This document shows, one piece after another, positions 14,627-23,779 of a stretch of 64,000 nucleotides of DNA (positions within the stretch are counted from its first letter, which is position 1; each line of letters starts with the position of its first letter). Where the stretch lies: assembly GCA_965223855.1 (NCBI GenBank), contig CBDCXM010000009.1, positions 1,696,001 through 1,760,000 on the forward strand, written 5' to 3'. The notes beneath the pieces are model-generated. The model was not told where the DNA came from. It was given only the letters and a program-made list of their open reading frames with translations, and ran no database searches. The DNA comes from Candidatus Multivoradales bacterium (lineage in GTDB: Bacteria > Acidobacteriota > Thermoanaerobaculia > Multivoradales > JAHEKO01). The translations under genes were made by a program, and so were the position numbers.

Positions 14627-15814
14627 ATGCACGGCTCGCCCGGGTCGAACGACGGCGTGATCGACAGCTCGACCGACGGCCAGGTGCTCGCCCGGGCCTG
14701 GCAGCAGTGGTGCCGCGGGCCGTGGTGGCTGCACGTCGTCGCCGTCGCCTCCCTGGCCGCTCTGGCGGCGCTGCGCAGCTGGCCTGTCGTCGCGAACCTC
14801 TCCGAGCCGCTGGGAGACGAGGTCTGTTACCTGCGCGCCTTCGAGAGCGTGCTCGCCGGCGAGTCGCCGTTCGAGCAGCCGTGCTACGTGTACCCGTCCG
14901 TGGTCGCCCTGACGGGCGGCCTCGGCTTCGAACTCCTCGGCAGGGATGCCACGGTGGCGCTGATGCGCGCTCTCAACCACGTCGGCCTCGGATTCGCCGC
15001 GTGGATGGCGGTCGGCTGGCTGCCGGCCTCGTGGATTCGCCGCGCCGCCGGCGCCGCCGCCTTCGTGGCTCTCGCACCTCAGGCGGTCTACTCGGTGCGC
15101 TTCGGCAACCTGTCGATGCTGGCGGTCGGCCTGATCCTGCTGGCGCTGGCCTGTGGGTCACGGCGGCCGCTCACCGGAGGGGGGCTGCTCGGTGCGAGCA
15201 TCGCCGTCAAGCCGCTGGCACCGATGGTGGCGTTGGGGTGGCTCCTGGCGGGCCCGACCCGAGCGTTGCGCCTCGCCGGGGGCGTCGCGCTCGGAGCGGC
15301 GGCGCTGCTGGTGCTGGCGTTCCCCCATCTCGACGACCTGCTGGCGCTCCATCGCACCGACAAGGTGGTGCGCACGGTGACCTTCCATCGCTTCCCGCCG
15401 CTGCTCGGCCTCGAGACGAGTGCGCTGTGGATCTCGTTGCCGCTCGCGCTCGGGTTCCTCTGGTGGTTGGTCAGAAGCGAGCCGGGACCGGGACAGCGAC
15501 TGGCGCTGCTGACCGTCGCCTGCCTGGCGGTGACCCCGGTGGTGTGGAGTCACACCCTGGTGCTGGCGTTGCCGCTCGAAGTGATGGTCGGCACCGTCGC
15601 GTGGCGTCGCTGGTCGCGACGCAGGGCTGCCGTCGCCGGCGCCTGGATCGAGCCGGCGTTCGTGGCCGTGGCCGTGGTGGCGATCCAGTTCGCCGCCGGA
15701 GCCGGAGGAGTCGACGATCGGGCTGTGGCGCTGCAACTCGTGGCAGGGGCGGTCCCGGGCTTGGCGCCGATCTTCCTCGTCGCCTACCTGTTGCGCGCGA
15801 CGGATCGGTTCTGA
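14627..15814 (+). CDS. GT-C membrane glycosyltransferase-like protein (GT87/DUF2029-like)
   Basis: GDEVCY..A, YVYPS, RFGNLS, SIAVKP and PVVWSHT patterns; multi-TM. Confidence 0.7.
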   Translation: MHGSPGSNDGVIDSSTDGQVLARAWQQWCRGPWWLHVVAVASLAALAALRSWPVVANLSEPLGDEVCYLRAFESVLAGESPFEQPCYVYPSVVALTGGLGFELLGRDATVALMRALNHVGLGFAAWMAVGWLPASWIRRAAGAAAFVALAPQAVYSVRFGNLSMLAVGLILLALACGSRRPLTGGGLLGASIAVKPLAPMVALGWLLAGPTRALRLAGGVALGAAALLVLAFPHLDDLLALHRTDKVVRTVTFHRFPPLLGLETSALWISLPLALGFLWWLVRSEPGPGQRLALLTVACLAVTPVVWSHTLVLALPLEVMVGTVAWRRWSRRRAAVAGAWIEPAFVAVAVVAIQFAAGAGGVDDRAVALQLVAGAVPGLAPIFLVAYLLRATDRF

Positions 15815-15929
15815 GGGTCGGGTTTCGGGGTCCGGAACGGGCTCGGCGCGGGTCCGGAATGCGGCCAGAGCCCTATGCTAAGGTCCACCGGATCGAGTCG
15901 TGCCAATCGAGGGGCGAGGAGGAGGTTTC

Positions 15930-16775
15930 ATGGCGAAGAAGAAGACGTTCCGGATCAAGGATCTGATGGTCACCGTGCTGCCGAAGCACGTCAGGGTCGC
16001 CCAGTGGCACTGTCTCCACGCGACGGTCTGCCGCCTCCCGAGTCGCGACGCGGACTTCGACGACTACGACGCCCAGGACTGTGGCCCGCCGGGCACCGCG
16101 ATCACCAGCCCCGGGGGTCACTGCCGGGAGGGGGTGAACACCCTCTTCCCATGTGATCCGGGCGAGGCAACGGTGACGGTCTGGTGCAACGACATTACCG
16201 ACTGCGACGGCGCCAACCTCTCCTACGACGTGGACTGCAAGGAGGGCGAGACTTCGATCGATCCCTGCGACGCGAGAGTCGCGCCGACCAATTGCCAGGG
16301 CGTGGTCGCCTCCGACGATGCCTGTGACCAGGGCCAGGGCAGTGACTGTTTCTGGGGAGTCGCGTCGGACTGTGAGGGCGATGGCGGCAGCGAGTGCCCG
16401 GCGCTGGCGGGTTCCGAGTGCGACGACGAGCCCGGTGCCGACGGTTCCCAGTGCCCCGCGCTCGAGGGGTCGCAGTGCGACGACGGCGGAGAGGGTGCGG
16501 CCTCCGGGTGCACCCAGCTCGACGGCTCGGCCGGCGAGATCTGCGGCATCACCGAGCCGTCGGCCTGTGGCGGCGAGAGCGCGATCGGCCTCAACTTTTC
16601 GCGTGTGAACGGCCTCGACGCACTGAAACGCGAACTACGTCAGGCGCTCAAGCAGGTCGAGTCGTTCGAGAAGGCGAAGTATCTCGAGGTGGCGGGACGC
16701 ACGCCGCTCGACGAGGAGGAGCGCCAGCGCCTCGCCCGCAGGGTCACGGAGAACTTCACCGGCGACGATCGGTGA
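15930..16775 (+). CDS. Cys/Ser/Thr-rich acidic protein, putative giant lanthipeptide precursor (281 aa)
   Basis: Strong GGAGG RBS; 20 Cys alternating with Ser/Thr; C-terminal amphipathic helix; directly upstream of the lyase and kinase-LanC genes. Confidence 0.8.
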   Translation: MAKKKTFRIKDLMVTVLPKHVRVAQWHCLHATVCRLPSRDADFDDYDAQDCGPPGTAITSPGGHCREGVNTLFPCDPGEATVTVWCNDITDCDGANLSYDVDCKEGETSIDPCDARVAPTNCQGVVASDDACDQGQGSDCFWGVASDCEGDGGSECPALAGSECDDEPGADGSQCPALEGSQCDDGGEGAASGCTQLDGSAGEICGITEPSACGGESAIGLNFSRVNGLDALKRELRQALKQVESFEKAKYLEVAGRTPLDEEERQRLARRVTENFTGDDR

Positions 16776-16810
16776 GGGCGCCGTCAGGAGCCTGAGCCGG
16801 CGATCCTCGG

Positions 16811-17995
16811 GTGGCCGGCACGCTGACTCAGCTGCGTGAGTTGGCCGGGGTCGGTCTGCGGGCCGGCCGTGGCTACACACTGCGTTCCCTGGAGGAGATC
16901 AGCTCCGAGGAGCGTGAGGCGCTCGGTGCCGCCGCCGACGATCCGGCGGCGGTGGCGTTGTTGCTTCCCTCCGAGGGGAGCGGGCTGACGGTGAAACTGC
17001 TCGACTCGAGGACAGCGGAACTGTTCCGCTCGCTCGAGTCGTCGGTCTCGCGGAGTGAGCTCGCCGAGGGCCCGCAGGCGATCCAGGTCGCCCGGCTGAT
17101 CGCAGACGGCGTACTGGAGATCGAAACCTCCGACGGGTTCGTCGGTGGGCCGGCGTCGCTCCCCTTTCTCCTGGATCCGGTTCCGGATCCCGACGCCATG
17201 TCGGGGCGGGCGGCCCGCCTTGCCGTCGCGGCGGTCCGCTACGGTGCGAGTCTGGGGAAACTGCCCGCGCCCCTGCTGGCGATGCGGCTCTATCACTTCC
17301 ATCGTCTTCCCGAGTCGCGCGGATGGAGGCGGCGCCTGCCCGACGACGAGGCGGTGGATGCCTATCTCGGGATCAGCGAGGGAGAGACCGGACGACTGCT
17401 CGAGAGCACATGGATACCGATCGCCCGTGACGAGCCGAACCCCTACTGGCGGATCTGGCGGCATCGCAATCCACCGCCGGTGAGGCGACGCAGAAGGGCT
17501 ACCTGGAAGCTGTACGTGAGTCCGCTGCTCACCGACCTCCCCTCCCTTCTGCCGACAGTGGTTCGCGTCCTCGGCGAGCTTCAGGTGCCGAACTTCAAGA
17601 TCGGGCGCGGCCTCGGCGGGCTGCTGCGACCCGACAAGATCGTCTCCTACTACTGGTCGAAGGAGCATGCCGAGCGCACCCTCCGGCGCCTGGCCGCCGA
17701 GTTCGAGGGAGTCGCGGCCCACGGAGTGCCCTTCGCGGCGGTTCCGTCGGGAAACGGGTTGATCTCTCTCGGCGTCGATCCGCCGCGCGAAGAACATGTC
17801 GCCCCATGGCTCGAAGGGGCGAGCTACCGGCTGTGGGTCTGTCGCTTCCTCGCCGCGGCGCTGCGTCCGTGCGCGGCGCGGGGGATGCCGGTCGACGATG
17901 CCGCCCGCTTCGCTCTCTCGCGACTGCACCTCGAGGGTGTCGATGTGGAAAGCTGGACGCCCGACCCTGAGCGACTGGACTTCCTCGATGACTGA
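16811..17995 (+). CDS. Stand-alone phosphoSer/Thr lyase-like protein (HopA1/LanY-like) with N-terminal RRE-like domain
   Basis: TWKLYVSP...NFKIG...LLRPDKIVSYY...GVPF...GVDP motifs resemble OspF/HopA1-type lyase domains; overlaps the start of the kinase-cyclase gene. Confidence 0.72.
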   Translation: MAGTLTQLRELAGVGLRAGRGYTLRSLEEISSEEREALGAAADDPAAVALLLPSEGSGLTVKLLDSRTAELFRSLESSVSRSELAEGPQAIQVARLIADGVLEIETSDGFVGGPASLPFLLDPVPDPDAMSGRAARLAVAAVRYGASLGKLPAPLLAMRLYHFHRLPESRGWRRRLPDDEAVDAYLGISEGETGRLLESTWIPIARDEPNPYWRIWRHRNPPPVRRRRRATWKLYVSPLLTDLPSLLPTVVRVLGELQVPNFKIGRGLGGLLRPDKIVSYYWSKEHAERTLRRLAAEFEGVAAHGVPFAAVPSGNGLISLGVDPPREEHVAPWLEGASYRLWVCRFLAAALRPCAARGMPVDDAARFALSRLHLEGVDVESWTPDPERLDFLDD

Positions 17996-20342
17996 AGCGC
18001 TCGATCTGACCGCCGCGTTCGTTCTGCCGCGCCACGCACATCTGACCCCGATCGAAGAGCTTCCGGACGACCAGCGCGAGCAGGTCGGCGGCGAGCCTGG
18101 CGAGTCGGCCCTGACCCTCGCCTTCGGGCGGGCGGGCTCGAAGGTCGTGGACGGACCGACCGCAGAGCTGCTGACCCTGTTTCGAGAGCCGAGGACGATC
18201 GTCGAAGCGGTGATCGAGTTCGCGTCGGCCGAAGGTCTCGATCCCGAGGAGACCCTCGAGGCGGCCTACCCGGTGCTGTCGCGGCTTCTGGCGGCAGGCT
18301 ATCTGGTTCCGGCGGACTCGCCGGCCGCCGATCCGCCGCAACCGCGTTTCTCCCAGGGGGACCGTGTCGGGTCGTGGGAGGTCCGACGATGCATCCGGAT
18401 GATGCTCGATACGGAGATCTATCTCGCGCGCGGCGAAGAGGGTCGGGCAGCGATCAAGGTCGCGAGGGAGGCCGACCGATCTCACCTCGAGAGACGGTTC
18501 GACCGCGAGCGGCGGATCTACGAACTCCTCGATGGACTCGAAGTGGTGCCGAGGTTCCTGGGTAGCGGCGAGGTCGAAGGCAGGCCGTACCTCGTTCTGG
18601 AGTGGTGCGCCGGCCACCCCTCCAACTCGCCTCACGTCCGGTGGGGAGCGACTCGCCAGGCGCATCTCGAGTTCGCGGCTCGGACGCTCGAGGCCTATCG
18701 GCGCCTTCACGAACGCGGCGTGCTGCATGGTGACGTCCACGCCGAGAACCTGATGATCGCGTCCGACGGCGAGGTCCGGCTGATCGACTTCGGTGCCGCG
18801 AAGGTGCTGGACGCCTCCGACGAGCTCGGGCGGGCTCCGAGAATGGGAGTCGCCTACTACTACGAACCGGAGTACGCGGCCGCACTCGCCGCCGGTCGAC
18901 GCGGCCCGCCGGTCACCCTCGAAAGCGAGCAATATCGCATCGCGGCCGTTCTCTACAGCCTCCTGACGGACGCCCACTACCTGGACTTCAGGCTCGAACA
19001 GAGCGAGATGCTCGAGGCGATTCAGACAGACCCGCCGCTGCCGTTCACCCATCACGGTGTAGCGGGTCAGGAGGCTGTCGAGCGTGTCCTGGCGAGAGCG
19101 CTCGAGAAGAGCCCGGAACGGCGGTTCCCCTCCACTTCCGACTTCTGCGAGGCGTTCGCCGAAGCGCTGGACGAAACCCCTGCCGCTCCGGGCCTTTCGG
19201 CCGGACTCCTCGATCAGGCGGAGGGCGTCGTCGCCGAGCTGCTGGAGAACGCGGCCCCGGACGGGGTCTGGGTGCGGAAGGGGCTCGCCGCCGCTCCCCG
19301 CGCCTCGATCAACACGGGAGCTGCGGGCGTCGCGGTCGCGCTCGCCCGGATCGCCGAGATCCGCGATGATCCGGTGGCGCTGGCGACGGCCGACGTCTGG
19401 GTGGCGCGAGCGTTGAGCGATCTGGGCGACCACGAGGCGTTCTTCGGGCCCGACGGCGAGCTGCGCGAAGACATCGTCGAGGAGGTCTCGCTGTTCCACT
19501 ACGAGCCCGGGCTTCATGTCGCCGACGCAATCGTTGCGCAGCTGCTCGGAGATCGGCAGCGAGCCTCGGTGGCCGCTCGTCGCTTCATCCGCTCCTGCTC
19601 GCGCGAGTGGGAGAACCCCGATCTGACGCTCGGTCGGACGGGTGCCCTCATCGGATCCGCCATTCTCGTCGACAGACTCGGCGCCGATGAGTCCCTCCTC
19701 TCCTTTGGCGCCGAAGTCGAGTCGAGCGTCTGGGACTCGCTTCGGCACAAGTCGCCGATCGCCGGGCCCGAAAGCTCGTTCAACCTCGGCCTGGCTCACG
19801 GCTGGGCGGGGGTTCTCTTCGCCTCGATGCAGTGGAGTCGCGTCTCCGGGCTGCCGCTTCGCGACGAAGTGGAAGAGCGCCTCGACCAGCTCGCCGCACT
19901 GGCACAACCTCACGGCCGTGGAGTGCGCTGGCCGTGGTACCTCAAGGGGGAGAACCGAGAGCCTGTCTACATGCCGGGCTGGTGCAGCGGTGCGACCGGC
20001 CACGCGTTGCTGTGGGCGGAGGCGGCGCGGTCGTTCGACCGCGACGCCTATCTCGGACTGGCGAGCGGGTCGGCCTGGTCGGCGTGGAGAACTCCGTTCG
20101 GCTCCGATCACCTGTGCTGCGGTGCTGCGGGTGGCGCCTTCGCGATGCTGCGGCTTCATGGAACGACCCTCGAGCCGGATTGGAAGGTCCGGGCGCAGCG
20201 TCTCTTCCAGAAGTCCCTCGTACCTCCGGCGGAAGAGGCGAACTCGCCCGCCAGCCTCTATCGGGGGCGAACGGGAATCGCCCTGCTTGCCGCCGAACTC
20301 GAGGGGGACGCAGCGGCGCGGATGCCGATGCTCGAAGTCTGA
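17988..20342 (+). CDS. Ser/Thr kinase-LanC cyclase fusion (lanthionine synthetase lacking an internal lyase domain)
   Basis: Kinase: AAIK, HGDVHAEN, LIDFG, YYEPE. LanC: GxxG repeats, NLGLAHGWAG, GWCSGATG, HLCCGAAG, LYRGRTG. Confidence 0.9.
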   Translation: MTEALDLTAAFVLPRHAHLTPIEELPDDQREQVGGEPGESALTLAFGRAGSKVVDGPTAELLTLFREPRTIVEAVIEFASAEGLDPEETLEAAYPVLSRLLAAGYLVPADSPAADPPQPRFSQGDRVGSWEVRRCIRMMLDTEIYLARGEEGRAAIKVAREADRSHLERRFDRERRIYELLDGLEVVPRFLGSGEVEGRPYLVLEWCAGHPSNSPHVRWGATRQAHLEFAARTLEAYRRLHERGVLHGDVHAENLMIASDGEVRLIDFGAAKVLDASDELGRAPRMGVAYYYEPEYAAALAAGRRGPPVTLESEQYRIAAVLYSLLTDAHYLDFRLEQSEMLEAIQTDPPLPFTHHGVAGQEAVERVLARALEKSPERRFPSTSDFCEAFAEALDETPAAPGLSAGLLDQAEGVVAELLENAAPDGVWVRKGLAAAPRASINTGAAGVAVALARIAEIRDDPVALATADVWVARALSDLGDHEAFFGPDGELREDIVEEVSLFHYEPGLHVADAIVAQLLGDRQRASVAARRFIRSCSREWENPDLTLGRTGALIGSAILVDRLGADESLLSFGAEVESSVWDSLRHKSPIAGPESSFNLGLAHGWAGVLFASMQWSRVSGLPLRDEVEERLDQLAALAQPHGRGVRWPWYLKGENREPVYMPGWCSGATGHALLWAEAARSFDRDAYLGLASGSAWSAWRTPFGSDHLCCGAAGGAFAMLRLHGTTLEPDWKVRAQRLFQKSLVPPAEEANSPASLYRGRTGIALLAAELEGDAAARMPMLEV

Positions 20343-20365
20343 CCGGTCGCGGCGTCCGGTGGCGG

Positions 20366-22735
20366 TCAGGCCCGCTCGGGTACCCAGGCCAGCCCCACGA
20401 GGTGCACTTCGACGTCCGCACGTCGGGGCCGCAGCTCTTCGGTCGTCAGCTCCTGGTGCATCGGGTCGAGGCTCTCGCGCAGGGCGTCGATCTCGCGTTG
20501 CGCCTCGGCGTCGAGCTCCTGGATCTCCGCCTGAATCGCTTCGATGTCCTCTTCGGCGCGATCGACGTCCTGCGAGTCACGCCAGGAGCGGGTGGCGCTG
20601 CGCATCGCGGTACCGGCGTTGCGGCGCACGCTGCGGCCGAGCACGGCACCGAGCAAGGTGGTGCCGATGTTGACGACGGTGTCGAGCTTCACCTGCCGGG
20701 CCTGCTGCTCTTCCTTCTCGCGGCGTTGCTCGGCTTTCCTGAGGCGCTCTTCGAGCTTCTCGATCTGGCCGGCATACTTGTCGCGCAGAGCGTCGAGCCT
20801 GGCGTCGCGCTCCTCGCGGGTGGCGTGCTGCAGTCGAACGCGGAAGTCGCGCTCGCTCTCGCCCGGCTCGGCCACCAGCCCGAACGCTTCGCTCTCCATC
20901 AGCTCGAGCTTGCGGTTGCGGTAGAGCCACTCTGAGAAGTCCTTCGTCCACGCGCTCCACGACTTCGACTGCGCCGCTTCGGACGGTACCGAGGCGAACT
21001 GGGCATCGGCGACCGGCACCTCCTCGAGACGCGAGGCGGGGACGGCGCTCATCTCGACCCGTTCCCAGTCGACCGGTACCGTGCCGTCGGTCAGCGGCGC
21101 GAGCACGGTGAGCTCCTCGGAGGTGTCGATGTCGTGCTTGCGATCGACGAAGTGCACCGTCGCCGCTCCGACGAGCCGGGGTTCGTAGCGCACCGCCGCG
21201 CCAACGGGAAGATCGCGGGCGGGCAGGAAGTACTGCTCGATGTCGGGATCGAGCACCGGTCTAGCGGAGGCGGCCTTCACCGGCGTGGCGGCTGGAGCTT
21301 CGTCGCGCTCACCGCCGGCGGGCCGCCGCCCGTCCATCAACCTTCGGATCTGATCGCGGGTCATCGGCCCGCGCAGGTAGGAGAGTACCCAGCGGGTCTC
21401 GAACACCACCGGGCCGTCGTCATGAACGTTGTGGAGCAGGAACTTGCGCTTGCCGAGACCGGCGAGGGTCTCCTCCATCTCGCCGCGATCGAAGCGCCCG
21501 GCGGCACCGGCGGAGGCTCCCTCGAGACCGTCGAGCACGCGGTTCTTGTCGCGAGCCGTCTGCAGGCGGCCGATGAACCACGAGCCGGTGTTCGAGAGCC
21601 CCTTGTAGTCGAGGTCGACCGGGTTCTGGGTCGCCAGCACGACGCCGACGCCGTGCGCCCTTGCCTGTTTGAGGAGCGTCAGCAGCGGGCGCTTCGAGGG
21701 TGGATTGGCGACCGGCGGCATGTAGCCGAAGATCTCGTCCATGTAGACGAGGGCGCGCAGGCTGCTGGTGCCCGGCTGCGACCGGGTCCAACCGAGGACC
21801 TGGTTGAGCAGGAGCGAGACGAAGAACATCCGCTCCGAGTCGTCGAGGTGAGCGATCGAGAAGATCGCCACTCGCGGTTTGCCGGTGTCGGTGTAGAGGA
21901 GGCTCTGGACGTCGAGCGACTCCCCCTCCATCCAGGCTGAGAAGCCGGGAGCGGCGAGCAGGTTGTTGATCGTCATCGCCAGCTTGAACCGCTCCGAGGC
22001 AGGGTAGAAGGCGTCGAGATCGATCACACCCACCTTGTCGATCGGCGGATCCTGGAGGCTCTGGATGACCGCCGGCAGATCGAGATCGCGACCCTCGCGC
22101 CATTCGTGGTCGAGGATCGTCGACAGCAGGATGTGCTCGCGGCTCTGGAGGGCGTCCGCTTCGATGCCTACGAAGCCCAGGAGGCTCGAGACCGTCGTGC
22201 TGATGCGGTCGCCGAAGAGCTCGGCGTCTTCGATCACCTCACGCGGTGGGGCGCGGAAGGAGTCGAGGATCGACACCGGGATTCCGGCCGACGAACCGGG
22301 AGTGTAGATCGCGAAATCGGCGGCCTCGCGCAGTCGCCGGATGCGATCACCGTCCTGTCCCCATGAAGCGAGCCCCTTGCGCCACAGCTCGGCCTGGCCG
22401 GCCGCATACTCGGCTGGCGTCAACCCGTCCTTGCGGGCGTCGTCGGCGTTGATCCACGGCTCGAAGTCCTCCGGAGCGAGGTCCGGGAAGGTCAGGAGCA
22501 GGTTGCCGAGATCGCCCTTCGGGTCGATGACGATCGCCGGGACGCCGTCGATCGCCGCCTCCTCGAGCAGACCGATGCACAGCCCGGTCTTGCCGCTGCC
22601 GGTCATGCCGACGCATACCGCGTGCGTCGTCAGGTCCTTCGAGTCGTAGAGCAGCGGCACCCCGGCCGACTCGCCCGACCCGAGGTCGTGCGGCCGGCCG
22701 AGGAAGAACGCCCCCAGCTTTTCGTAGTCCTTCAA
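20366..22735 (-). CDS. HerA-like/DUF87 P-loop ATPase with C-terminal coiled coil
   Basis: HAVCVGMTGSGKT, IDPKGD, YMDEIFG, LATQNPVDLDYK; TTG start. Confidence 0.88.
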   Translation of the reverse strand: MKDYEKLGAFFLGRPHDLGSGESAGVPLLYDSKDLTTHAVCVGMTGSGKTGLCIGLLEEAAIDGVPAIVIDPKGDLGNLLLTFPDLAPEDFEPWINADDARKDGLTPAEYAAGQAELWRKGLASWGQDGDRIRRLREAADFAIYTPGSSAGIPVSILDSFRAPPREVIEDAELFGDRISTTVSSLLGFVGIEADALQSREHILLSTILDHEWREGRDLDLPAVIQSLQDPPIDKVGVIDLDAFYPASERFKLAMTINNLLAAPGFSAWMEGESLDVQSLLYTDTGKPRVAIFSIAHLDDSERMFFVSLLLNQVLGWTRSQPGTSSLRALVYMDEIFGYMPPVANPPSKRPLLTLLKQARAHGVGVVLATQNPVDLDYKGLSNTGSWFIGRLQTARDKNRVLDGLEGASAGAAGRFDRGEMEETLAGLGKRKFLLHNVHDDGPVVFETRWVLSYLRGPMTRDQIRRLMDGRRPAGGERDEAPAATPVKAASARPVLDPDIEQYFLPARDLPVGAAVRYEPRLVGAATVHFVDRKHDIDTSEELTVLAPLTDGTVPVDWERVEMSAVPASRLEEVPVADAQFASVPSEAAQSKSWSAWTKDFSEWLYRNRKLELMESEAFGLVAEPGESERDFRVRLQHATREERDARLDALRDKYAGQIEKLEERLRKAEQRREKEEQQARQVKLDTVVNIGTTLLGAVLGRSVRRNAGTAMRSATRSWRDSQDVDRAEEDIEAIQAEIQELDAEAQREIDALRESLDPMHQELTTEELRPRRADVEVHLVGLAWVPERA

Positions 22736-23173: not shown

Positions 23174-23779
23174 ATGACCGTTTCCACGCTCATGGTCGAA
23201 ACCGAGGTTCACGACGGCGAACTGGTGCGCGACGCTCGCGCCGGGGACCGCGAGGCGCAGAACGAGCTGGTGCGGCGGTACCGCAACCCGGCGTTCCGCT
23301 TCGCGCTGCAGCTCACCGGCAATCGCGAGGACGCCCACGACGTCGCTCAGGAGGCGATGGTGCGCTTCGTCGAGACCCTCGACCGCTTCGACGACGAGCG
23401 CCCGGTCCAGCCGTGGCTGTTCCGGATCGTGCGCAACAAGGCGTTCGACCTCGGCAGGCGCCAGAAGGTGCGCCGGGCGGAGTCGCTCGACGACCTTCTC
23501 GAGCGTGGCATGCCGGCGCCGTCGCAGCCGACCGTCCACCCGGTCGATCGTCTCGAGCTCTTCGAGCTGAGGCGGCGGGTCTGGGAGGCGCTCGGCCGGT
23601 TGACCGAAGGGCAGCGGGAGATCCTCGTGTTGAGGGAGTATCAGGATCTTTCCTACGGGGAGATCGCGGAAGTTCTGGGAGTGCCGACCGGGACGGTGAT
23701 GTCGCGCCTGCATCGCGCGCGGACCGCCCTGCGCAAACAGCTCACGGCCGCTCCCGACAGTTCGAGGGCAGCACAATGA
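23174..23779 (+). CDS. ECF sigma-70 factor
   Basis: DAHDVAQEAMV, WLFRIVRN, LSYGEIAEVLGVPTGTVMSRLHRAR. Confidence 0.95.
   Translation: MTVSTLMVETEVHDGELVRDARAGDREAQNELVRRYRNPAFRFALQLTGNREDAHDVAQEAMVRFVETLDRFDDERPVQPWLFRIVRNKAFDLGRRQKVRRAESLDDLLERGMPAPSQPTVHPVDRLELFELRRRVWEALGRLTEGQREILVLREYQDLSYGEIAEVLGVPTGTVMSRLHRARTALRKQLTAAPDSSRAAQ

Follow-up and report, generated by a model that had tools for sequence, protein, structure and literature searches.

A probable lanthipeptide-type module with RRE-bearing lyase and kinase-cyclase enzymes and a precursor conserved at both ends

Lanthipeptide classes are defined by the way in which dehydration and cyclization are organized and by the way in which the leader of the precursor is recognized. 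A locus in the genome of a Candidatus Multivoradales bacterium (Acidobacteriota; Thermoanaerobaculia) raises the question of how two modifying enzymes might share one unusually long substrate, and whether such a substrate could be held at both of its ends. The window analyzed here is the whole stretch of 64,000 nucleotides (nt) taken from contig CBDCXM010000009.1 of assembly GCA_965223855.1 (positions 1,696,001 to 1,760,000 of the forward strand). Within it, an open reading frame (ORF) at 15930-16775 encodes a cysteine-rich protein and is followed by genes for a phospho-Ser/Thr lyase-type protein, called ORF394 here, and for a Ser/Thr kinase fused to a LanC-type cyclase. Both enzymes begin with domains resembling the recognition elements (RREs) of the pathways that make RiPPs, peptides produced on the ribosome and modified after translation. 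An earlier note, made from the sequence alone, had read the ORF as a lanthipeptide-like precursor with an RRE-binding strand at its N-terminus and a coiled-coil follower at its C-terminus. The analysis reported here indicates that the ORF probably encodes the substrate of a lanthipeptide-type module of three genes, with an element at each end by which it would be held (Table 1).

The reading frame runs from an ATG at 15930 to a stop at 16775 and specifies 281 amino acids (aa), with the sequence GGAGGAGG lying 4 nt 5' of the ATG. The frame is open further upstream to an alternative start, a GTG at 15900. The start at 15930 is favored because alignment of the family places the N-terminal motif 2-7 residues from the initiating Met, a distance biased by the choice, in each relative, of the nearest start codon upstream of the motif. 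A promoter and terminator scan of positions 15600-20600 found neither. All 20 Cys of the protein fall within residues 28-213, which leaves 27 Cys-free residues ahead of the first Cys and 68 after the last, in line with the Cys-free ends described by the earlier note. The net charge is +6 in the N-terminus, which is therefore basic as described, -33 in the core and 0 in the tail. By direct reading, the only hydrophobic run of the N-terminus is seven residues long (LMVTVLP) and the first 27 residues contain no Gly-Gly pair, so that the reported absence of a Sec signal and of a double-glycine leader holds. With its core central (Cys28-Cys213) and its helix motif C-terminal, the protein also departs, as had been proposed, from the usual leader-core order of lanthipeptides.

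No family emerges when the whole protein is used as the query, because the core is hypervariable. Pfam and NCBIfam contain no family for the window precursor, NCBIfam gave no match at E < 0.03 among 14 of its relatives, and ESM Atlas returned no usable match. A word-indexed search of 5.8 billion proteins with the whole precursor returned only the query itself, and an exhaustive phmmer search of 1.84 billion representatives returned the query and one protein, P0002, that matches the core and not the ends. The best of the weak translated-search matches to the precursor among 61 related genomes (L002) proved to be spurious on inspection. The lyase gene provided the route to relatives. A search with the single ORF394 protein found none, but a profile of the family did find them. 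Relatives of ORF394 occur in 9 of 61 near-relative genomes, and a profile built from eight sequences detects them in 95 of the 300 genomes from the order, with 74 of 92 for one family, as well as in 8 of the 401 genomes that make up a phylum-wide sample.

The 69 ORF394 loci retrieved, together with the window locus, constitute a set of 70 in which gene order is strongly maintained. The kinase-LanC gene follows ORF394 in 65 of these loci, and the remaining five run into a contig edge. In 55 of the 70, ORF394 is directly preceded on the same strand by a small ORF or a pair of them, 58 in total and 57-281 aa in length, and each of the 58 has a common N-terminal motif, a Cys/Ser/Thr-rich core without sequence conservation, and a predicted helical tail. 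Hidden Markov models (HMMs) of the two ends were scanned against the 8430 stop-to-stop ORFs in the 70 loci that reach 30 aa or more. The N-terminal model gave 55 hits above 10 bits and the tail model 53 above 8 bits; every one of these is located upstream of ORF394 and in its orientation, and where both motifs occur in one ORF, the N-terminal motif precedes the tail without exception (48 of 48).

Since these models were derived from the same sequences that they were used to scan, they were cross-validated by training on loci L048-L087 only and testing on the window region and loci L019-L047. The N-terminal model then scored the window ORF at 17.2 bits, second in rank, with upstream precursor ORFs occupying all of the top 17 places and non-precursors reaching no more than about 4 bits. 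The tail model scored it at 10.2 bits, seventh in rank, with precursors in all of the top 12 places and non-precursors at no more than about 6 bits. Both termini are thus conserved among homologous loci, which is the reverse of the outcome that the earlier note had named as contrary to its reading, namely that neither terminus would be.

Conservation of the ends extends well beyond the order. A profile of 54 sequences identifies 439 ORF394 relatives in species-representative genomes, and the cross-lineage counts given here refer to the best 80 of these 439 loci, several of which coincide with loci of the 70-locus set. The N-terminal model exceeds 9 bits in 59 of the 80, the tail model exceeds 8 bits in 42, and one or the other does so in 66. 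The search suggested by the earlier note, for both termini beside kinase-LanC genes, was therefore positive within the order (55 of 70 loci) as well as in other lineages (66 of 80 loci with at least one end model). The lineages represented among the best 80 include, within Acidobacteriota, Thermoanaerobaculia, Terriglobia, Holophagales, and Bryobacterales and, beyond it, Gemmatimonadota, Planctomycetota, Eremiobacterota, Chloroflexota, Nitrospiraceae, Actinomycetota, Rhodocyclaceae, and two Bacillus isolates, so that the layout is present in at least eight phyla. The N-terminal motif and a helix-loop-helix tail are shared by ORFs from Bacillus, Fuerstiella, Anaerolinea, Nitrospiraceae, and Ktedonobacteraceae.

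Several individual loci illustrate the variety within this family. Precursors as short as 61-66 aa occur, for example, at L060 and L084. One isolate assembly labeled Bacillus (L095) carries the three-gene module with a precursor of 108 aa, counted from the Met, that has the N-terminal motif; in another Bacillus isolate (L154), the ORF394 relative alone was seen. Tandem precursor genes with like flanks and differing cores occur at L042 (1295-1879 and 1892-2596), L070, L077, L092, and L117. At L065, around positions 1883-2354, the N-terminal and tail motifs stand in different frames, which may reflect a frameshifted precursor or an assembly error.

The N-terminal consensus derived from the family alignment is M-[AS]-F-[KR]-x-[KR]-D-L-[ML]-[VI]-x-V-[LI]-P, in which the Phe and the Leu following Asp are conserved in at least 90% of the aligned precursors. 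The Phe is residue 3 in 42 of the 58 precursors and residue 7 in the window protein, which has four extra residues ahead of the motif. A variant of the type P-K-I-K-D-L-G replaces the Phe-type motif in L042, L043, L096, L112, L117, and L167. In style, the motif may resemble the FNLD box of class I leaders.

At the opposite end, the tail consensus is [DA]-L-x-x-L-[RKQ]-x-[QE]-L-[RQ]-x-x-L, and a regular expression for it matches 51 of the 58 precursors beyond the last Cys, as compared with a mean of 0.61 and a maximum of 4 in 200 whole-sequence shuffles. In the window protein, residues 229-249 display a/d-like hydrophobic spacing over roughly three heptads when these are placed by hand, and a second amphipathic segment, preceded by a Pro, covers approximately residues 259-276. 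The residue pattern and the conservation across the family suggest that the tail segments are helical. Tails of at least 60 residues are found in 28 of the 58 precursors, and most of these run past helix 1 through a conserved-Pro loop into a second helix; the other 30 precursors have tails of fewer than 60 residues, most of which stop soon after helix 1. A regular expression for helix 2, drawn from a consensus like E-A-E-x-L-E-x-K-L-x-E-A-L-x-E-V-R-x-x-K-K-x-L, matches 17 of the 58 precursors, the window protein not being among them. A conserved sequence C-terminal to the core is what marks a RiPP follower, and such a sequence is found here in the same 51 of 58 precursors, in the window protein (at 10.2 bits in cross-validation) and in 42 of the 80 further loci. 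A follower role for the tail is plausible, and follower, as used in the earlier note, is a fair term for it. The coiled coil proposed in the same place fares less well: the pattern in window helix 1 spans only about three heptads, many relatives have one short helix of 12-16 residues, and helix 2 of the window protein is divergent.

Between these ends, the core of the window protein contains, besides its 20 Cys, 26 Ser/Thr when the count begins three residues ahead of Cys28 and ends five beyond Cys213, and is also rich in Gly. This composition is compatible with a Ser/Thr- and Cys-rich lanthipeptide core in which thioether rings are predicted to form. In the window core, 11 of the 20 Cys belong to S-[DEQGA]-C units, which are its building blocks, and the near-repeat G-S-[EQ]-C-P-A-L-[AE]-G-S-[EQ]-C-D-D is among them. 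The cores of relatives consist mostly of units of the form C-x-x-x-[ST], examples being C-T-G-T-T, C-P-x-P-S, and C-T-P-S-P. The match to P0002, a protein of 1423 aa in which 12 stretches resemble the acidic Cys-rich core (E 1.6e-14), looks like common repeat composition and is unrelated to the precursor flanks.

The third gene of the module, which begins with an ATG at 17988 and shares 8 nt with the end of ORF394, encodes a fusion of three domains. Pfam identifies a Pkinase domain (E 5.4e-18) and a LANC_like domain (E 8.4e-26). Its best NCBIfam match is class IV LanL (141 bits), followed by LanKC, and as the LanL model is matched only from model position 184, the enzyme is without a lyase domain. 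All 56 kinase-LanC sequences compared have, without variation, the Lys, the catalytic Asp and Asn, and the DFG Asp of the kinase, as well as the LanC His and three Cys, so the catalytic residues are intact. In place of a lyase domain, the first 110 residues adopt, in an AlphaFold2 (AF2) model with a predicted local distance difference test score (pLDDT) of 92.7, a PqqD-like RRE fold. Residues 1-110 superimpose on PqqD with a Z score of 10.3 (92 of 94 residues aligned; root-mean-square deviation (rmsd) 2.4), and high scores are also obtained with the TigE N-terminus (10.1) and with leader-bound TbiB1 (9.7) and lasso B1 (9.2). Lower scores are given by MibB (8.2), ThcOx (8.2), MccB (8.1), the RRE of PbtF (7.4), and leader-bound NisB (7.0).

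The LanC domain has a feature of its own. In the window enzyme and 55 homologues (L019-L087), the Cys of W-C-x-G and the His of A-H-G are invariant, and all 56 sequences have C-C-G at the position of C-H-G, the usual zinc-ligand motif of LanC cyclases, residues having been assigned to ligands from familiar motifs rather than from a structural alignment. The presence of C-C-G in all 56 sequences therefore suggests a metal site of the Cys3 rather than the Cys2His type. The class IV cyclase has a zinc-ligand set and the class III cyclase is without one.

ORF394 is the second enzyme. Its AF2 model, built from 54 sequences, has a pLDDT of 88.4, and among the structures matched by residues 124-390 the class V lyase LxmY ranks first (9dk1_B; Foldseek E 2.6e-6), with Z 15.1 over 230 aligned residues and an rmsd of 4.0. 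Other matches to this domain are HopA1 (4rsw_B, Z 14.8), CuvL (14.1), ThurKC (12.6), SalKC (11.6), and SpvC (8.9). The relationship is less visible at the level of sequence: Pfam HopA1 matches two of eight ORF394-family members (best E 1.5e-4), the window protein not being one of them, and a profile search of the sequences of solved structures with the ORF394-family alignment gave chance-level matches only. Lys233, Lys263, Arg273, and Lys276 are invariant in the 54 ORF394 sequences and are presumably catalytic. The N-terminal domain, at about residues 7-110, matches TigE (Z 6.6), MibB (6.2), NGO1945 (6.2), TbtB (5.9), NovN (5.3), and TbiB1 (5.2), values that are middling when taken alone; all six recur among the matches of the kinase-LanC RRE. 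Profile alignment with hhalign pairs residues 6-111 of the kinase-LanC with residues 9-109 of ORF394 at 87.7% probability (E 3.4e-6), and the two enzymes therefore carry paralogous RREs.

Table 1. Coordinates of the precursor gene, its parts, and the two enzyme genes of the module within the window
Feature	Position	Strand	Basis or remark
Precursor gene	15930..16775	+	281 aa plus stop; order N-terminal motif, acidic Cys/Ser/Thr-rich core, helical tail
Cys-free N-terminus, 27 residues, contains motif	15930-16010	+	
N-terminal recognition motif (putative), F7-P18, FRIKDLMVTVLP	15948..15983	+	family alignment; cross-validated HMM 17.2 bits
Core, Cys28-Cys213: 20 Cys, net charge -33	16011..16568	+	hypervariable among relatives
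Tail helix 1 (predicted), residues 229-249, LDALKRELRQALKQVESFEKA, containing LDALKRELRQAL	16614..16676	+	family motif; cross-validated HMM 10.2 bits
Tail segment 2, residues 259-276, following conserved Pro	16704..16757	+	place of helix 2 in long-form tails; divergent here
ORF394: RRE-like N-terminal domain (~7-120), HopA1/LanY-fold phospho-Ser/Thr lyase domain (~124-390)	16811..17995	+	AF2 model, Foldseek, VIA-align
RRE-Ser/Thr kinase-LanC fusion, 784 aa	17988..20342	+	Pfam, NCBIfam, RRE model
RRE of the fusion	~17988-18320	+	
Kinase domain of the fusion	~18432-19127	+	
LanC domain of the fusion	~19305-20333	+	

No part of the precursor is better conserved than the N-terminal motif, and it is the clearest candidate for a ligand of these RREs, either of one or of both. 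In the available text of PMC8341899, RREs are described as binding a short leader segment as an added beta-strand between beta-3 and alpha-3. Of the proposal in the earlier note that the motif is an RRE-binding strand, the part concerning a receptor has gained substance, since candidate receptors are present in the RRE of the kinase-LanC and the paralogous RRE of the lyase, and a strand would be the form expected of the bound motif. In a run made without controls, predicted complexes of precursor residues 1-45 with ORF394 and with kinase-LanC residues 1-135 gave ipSAE values of 0.05 and 0.14, against a mark of 0.32, which count neither for nor against binding.

Taken together, these components allow a mechanism to be proposed. 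The kinase would phosphorylate Ser and Thr residues of the central core, the separate lyase ORF394 would eliminate the phosphate to generate dehydro-amino acids, and the LanC domain would add Cys thiols to these, yielding a heavily thioether-cross-linked product from which either end might be removed. The F-[KR]-x-[KR]-D-L-x-V-x-V-L-P motif would serve as a leader-type handle for the RREs; since these are paralogues of each other, it may be bound by one of them or by both. The amphipathic helix at the C-terminus, probably a helix-loop-helix in long forms like the window protein, would provide a second docking element, or follower, and could dock on the kinase domain in the way that the helical leaders of class III and class IV precursors do. 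The tail would be most simply explained by docking on the kinase N-lobe, by an analogy with those leaders that is one of kind only. It is suggested tentatively, as a possibility still short of an expectation, that the whole represents an undescribed cross-phylum class, in which a lyase with an RRE is split from a kinase-cyclase with an RRE and the substrate is held by an N-terminal strand on the RRE(s) and a C-terminal helix bound elsewhere, for instance on the kinase N-lobe.

Several observations weigh against this scheme. A recognizable upstream precursor is missing in 15 of the 70 loci, among them L027, which has almost no upstream DNA. Four loci (L022, L024, L041, and L046) have an ORF394 that lacks the RRE, and the small Cys-containing ORFs upstream of it score for neither motif; natural variation therefore assigns neither end of the precursor to a partner. 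The window precursor is itself atypical, being the longest of the 58 collected, with its motif Phe at residue 7 instead of 3 and a divergent tail helix 2, and at 281 aa it is, to our knowledge, far longer than known lanthipeptide precursors. Its Cys occur in [ST]-x-C in 11 of 20 cases and in C-x-x-x-[ST] in 4 of 20, whereas in its 57 relatives there are, per 450 Cys, 278 sites of the C-x-x-x-[ST] type and 98 of the [ST]-x-C type, a difference from which it follows that ring direction and size may vary within the family. The tail resembles class III and IV leader helices only in amphipathicity and spaced Leu, and the sequences do not align. Finally, Pfam annotation of 24 co-oriented downstream ORFs revealed no conserved protease or transporter beside the module, and removal of either end and export are accordingly unsupported by the neighborhood.

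The upstream Cys-containing ORFs of the four loci with an RRE-less ORF394 diverge at both ends, and that of L041 contains five repeats of the type E-E-E-G-C-P-R-K-P-T.

The lack of a conserved protease nearby also bears on a different account of the tail, according to which the flanks are real but the tail, instead of docking on an enzyme, mediates self-association as a short coiled coil or helical hairpin or remains, uncleaved, as part of the final cross-linked protein. The two amphipathic helices, Pro-containing loop, and a/d-like spacing of long-form tails would suit such a role, as would the length of the precursors (up to 281 aa), and paralogous RREs that both take the N-terminal motif would free the tail for another function. 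Self-association is harder to reconcile with the 30 of 58 tails that have fewer than 60 residues and mostly a single helix of about 12-16 residues, short for a stable coiled coil. In addition, the most conserved tail positions include the polar Gln10 (37 of 50) and Arg/Gln12 (42 of 50), so a specific interface fits better than a generic hydrophobic zipper. This account is accordingly regarded as unlikely, although it retains some weight, and docking of the tail on an enzyme is preferred.

The properties of the core invite a more radical departure, in which the protein is no RiPP-type substrate and is instead an acidic, Cys-rich metal-binding or redox protein, regulated or modified by the kinase, to which the LanC domain adds a small thiol in the manner of eukaryotic LanC-like proteins. 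A core with a net charge of -33 that is rich in Cys and Gly, a length of 281 aa, and the presence of the module in 74 of 92 genomes of one family, unusual for an antibiotic-type cluster, all point in that direction. However, the cores vary in length (in precursors of 57-281 aa) and in sequence with only the flanks conserved, they consist of short repeated modules of Cys plus Ser/Thr, and both enzymes bear RRE domains, which are known from RiPP pathways. These are the marks of a typical RiPP precursor rather than of a conserved metalloprotein, and a metal-binding or redox role is improbable. Least credible of all is a reading of the N-terminal motif as a sorting or export signal instead of an RRE handle, which its basic and then hydrophobic character at the extreme N-terminus might suggest, but which is hardly compatible with a hydrophobic run of just about seven residues, the absence, on direct reading, of a twin-Arg or a lipobox, invariant Phe and Asp-Leu positions that fit a sequence-specific motif, and two RRE domains encoded in the same operon.

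The module, with a precursor proposed to be held at both ends, shares features with several known systems and coincides with none of them. As in classes III and IV (LanL, LanKC; CuvL, ThurKC), a Ser/Thr kinase precedes a LanC-type cyclase, the lyase fold is common to both (CuvL Z 14.1; ThurKC 12.6), and a predicted helix of the recognition type, with Leu at intervals, is part of the precursor. In those classes, lyase, kinase, and cyclase form one trifunctional enzyme, whereas here the lyase is separate and a PqqD-like RRE occupies the position of the lyase domain. According to the available portions of two sources, the leaders of class III and IV precursors are helical, depend on hydrophobic residues set at intervals (ILELQ, LELQL), and dock on the kinase N-lobe (PMC10604976, PMC8341899), and their recognition is RRE-independent (PMC8341899). 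The helical leader of those precursors is N-terminal and their core C-terminal, as far as the same portions describe them, whereas here the core is central, the helix C-terminal, and the N-terminal motif of a different kind. So-called 'Class VI' lanthipeptides are mentioned in the available part of a review as streptococcal LanKC variants.

With class V (LxmK/LxmY, lexapeptide), the module has in common a stand-alone lyase of the HopA1 fold (LxmY Z 15.1), to which an RRE domain is added here. The available part of PMC10604976 describes class V as having a stand-alone APH-type kinase and no LanC cyclase, whereas the present kinase is a Pkinase-type domain fused to LANC_like. The RRE-dependent enzymes (PqqD, lasso B1, and the class I LanB proteins NisB and MibB) share the RRE fold of three strands and three helices, which is found here, and the pathways to which they belong share a short conserved motif near the precursor N-terminus. 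The present system differs in that one RRE is fused to the kinase-cyclase and a second copy to the lyase, and in the extra conserved C-terminal element of the precursor; with class I and other RRE-dependent RiPPs, it is the recognition domain that is common and the chemistry that is different. Follower peptides are a feature of bottromycin-type RiPPs, and the present precursors presumably share with these a conserved sequence that follows the modified region on its C-terminal side and is probably not part of the core. Here, in distinction, there are conserved elements at both ends, the chemistry would be of the lanthipeptide type, and the follower function is putative. Full-text literature, with most subscription journals outside its coverage, yielded no description of an RRE-kinase-LanC enzyme with a separate RRE-lyase, nor of such precursors.

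An RRE-bearing kinase-cyclase, a separate RRE-lyase, and a two-ended precursor would add a new organization to those by which lanthipeptides are classified, and the module would offer a natural test case of two enzymes sharing one long substrate. If the proposal is true, holding at both ends would let very long cores (in precursors of up to 281 aa, with 20-30 Cys) become cross-linked 'lanthi-proteins', and no earlier lanthipeptide family would have combined kinase-type dehydration dependent on an RRE, or a follower, with its chemistry. Occurrence in isolate assemblies labeled Bacillus makes the family accessible to experiment, and the models of the flanks permit the mining of precursors that whole-protein searches miss.

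The genes around the module vary. Upstream of the precursor in the window (14627-15814, + strand) lies a gene for a membrane protein of 395 aa with a weak GT87 match (E 0.0014), and downstream (23174-23779, + strand) one for an extracytoplasmic function (ECF)-type sigma factor; neither is conserved with the module. Convergent with the module (20366-22735, - strand) is a gene for a 789-aa protein with an N-terminal match to HerA/TraD-type P-loop proteins and a weak C-terminal match to a golgin-type coiled-coil family, with no counterpart in the 69 related loci. Among the 24 co-oriented downstream ORFs mentioned above, Pfam identified six Ser/Thr kinases, two of them with PD40 repeats, and single examples of a major facilitator superfamily (MFS) transporter, an ATP-binding cassette (ABC) transporter, an S8 peptidase, a histidine kinase-response regulator, a TonB plug protein, and a DUF2961 protein, and 12 were without a match.

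In one acidobacterial family, large Ser/Thr kinases flank the module. Upstream kinases at L048, L055, L060, L061, L068, L086, and L087 were recognized, by reading of the sequence, from a D-F-G-x-A-K motif and beta-propeller-like (PD40-type) repeats, and downstream ORFs at L046, L049, L069, L075, L079, and L086 match Pkinase, those of L069 and L075 also matching PD40. An upstream winged-helix regulator with TPR-like repeats was read in the same manner at L020 and L023. The flanking kinases and winged-helix proteins may be regulators of the module.

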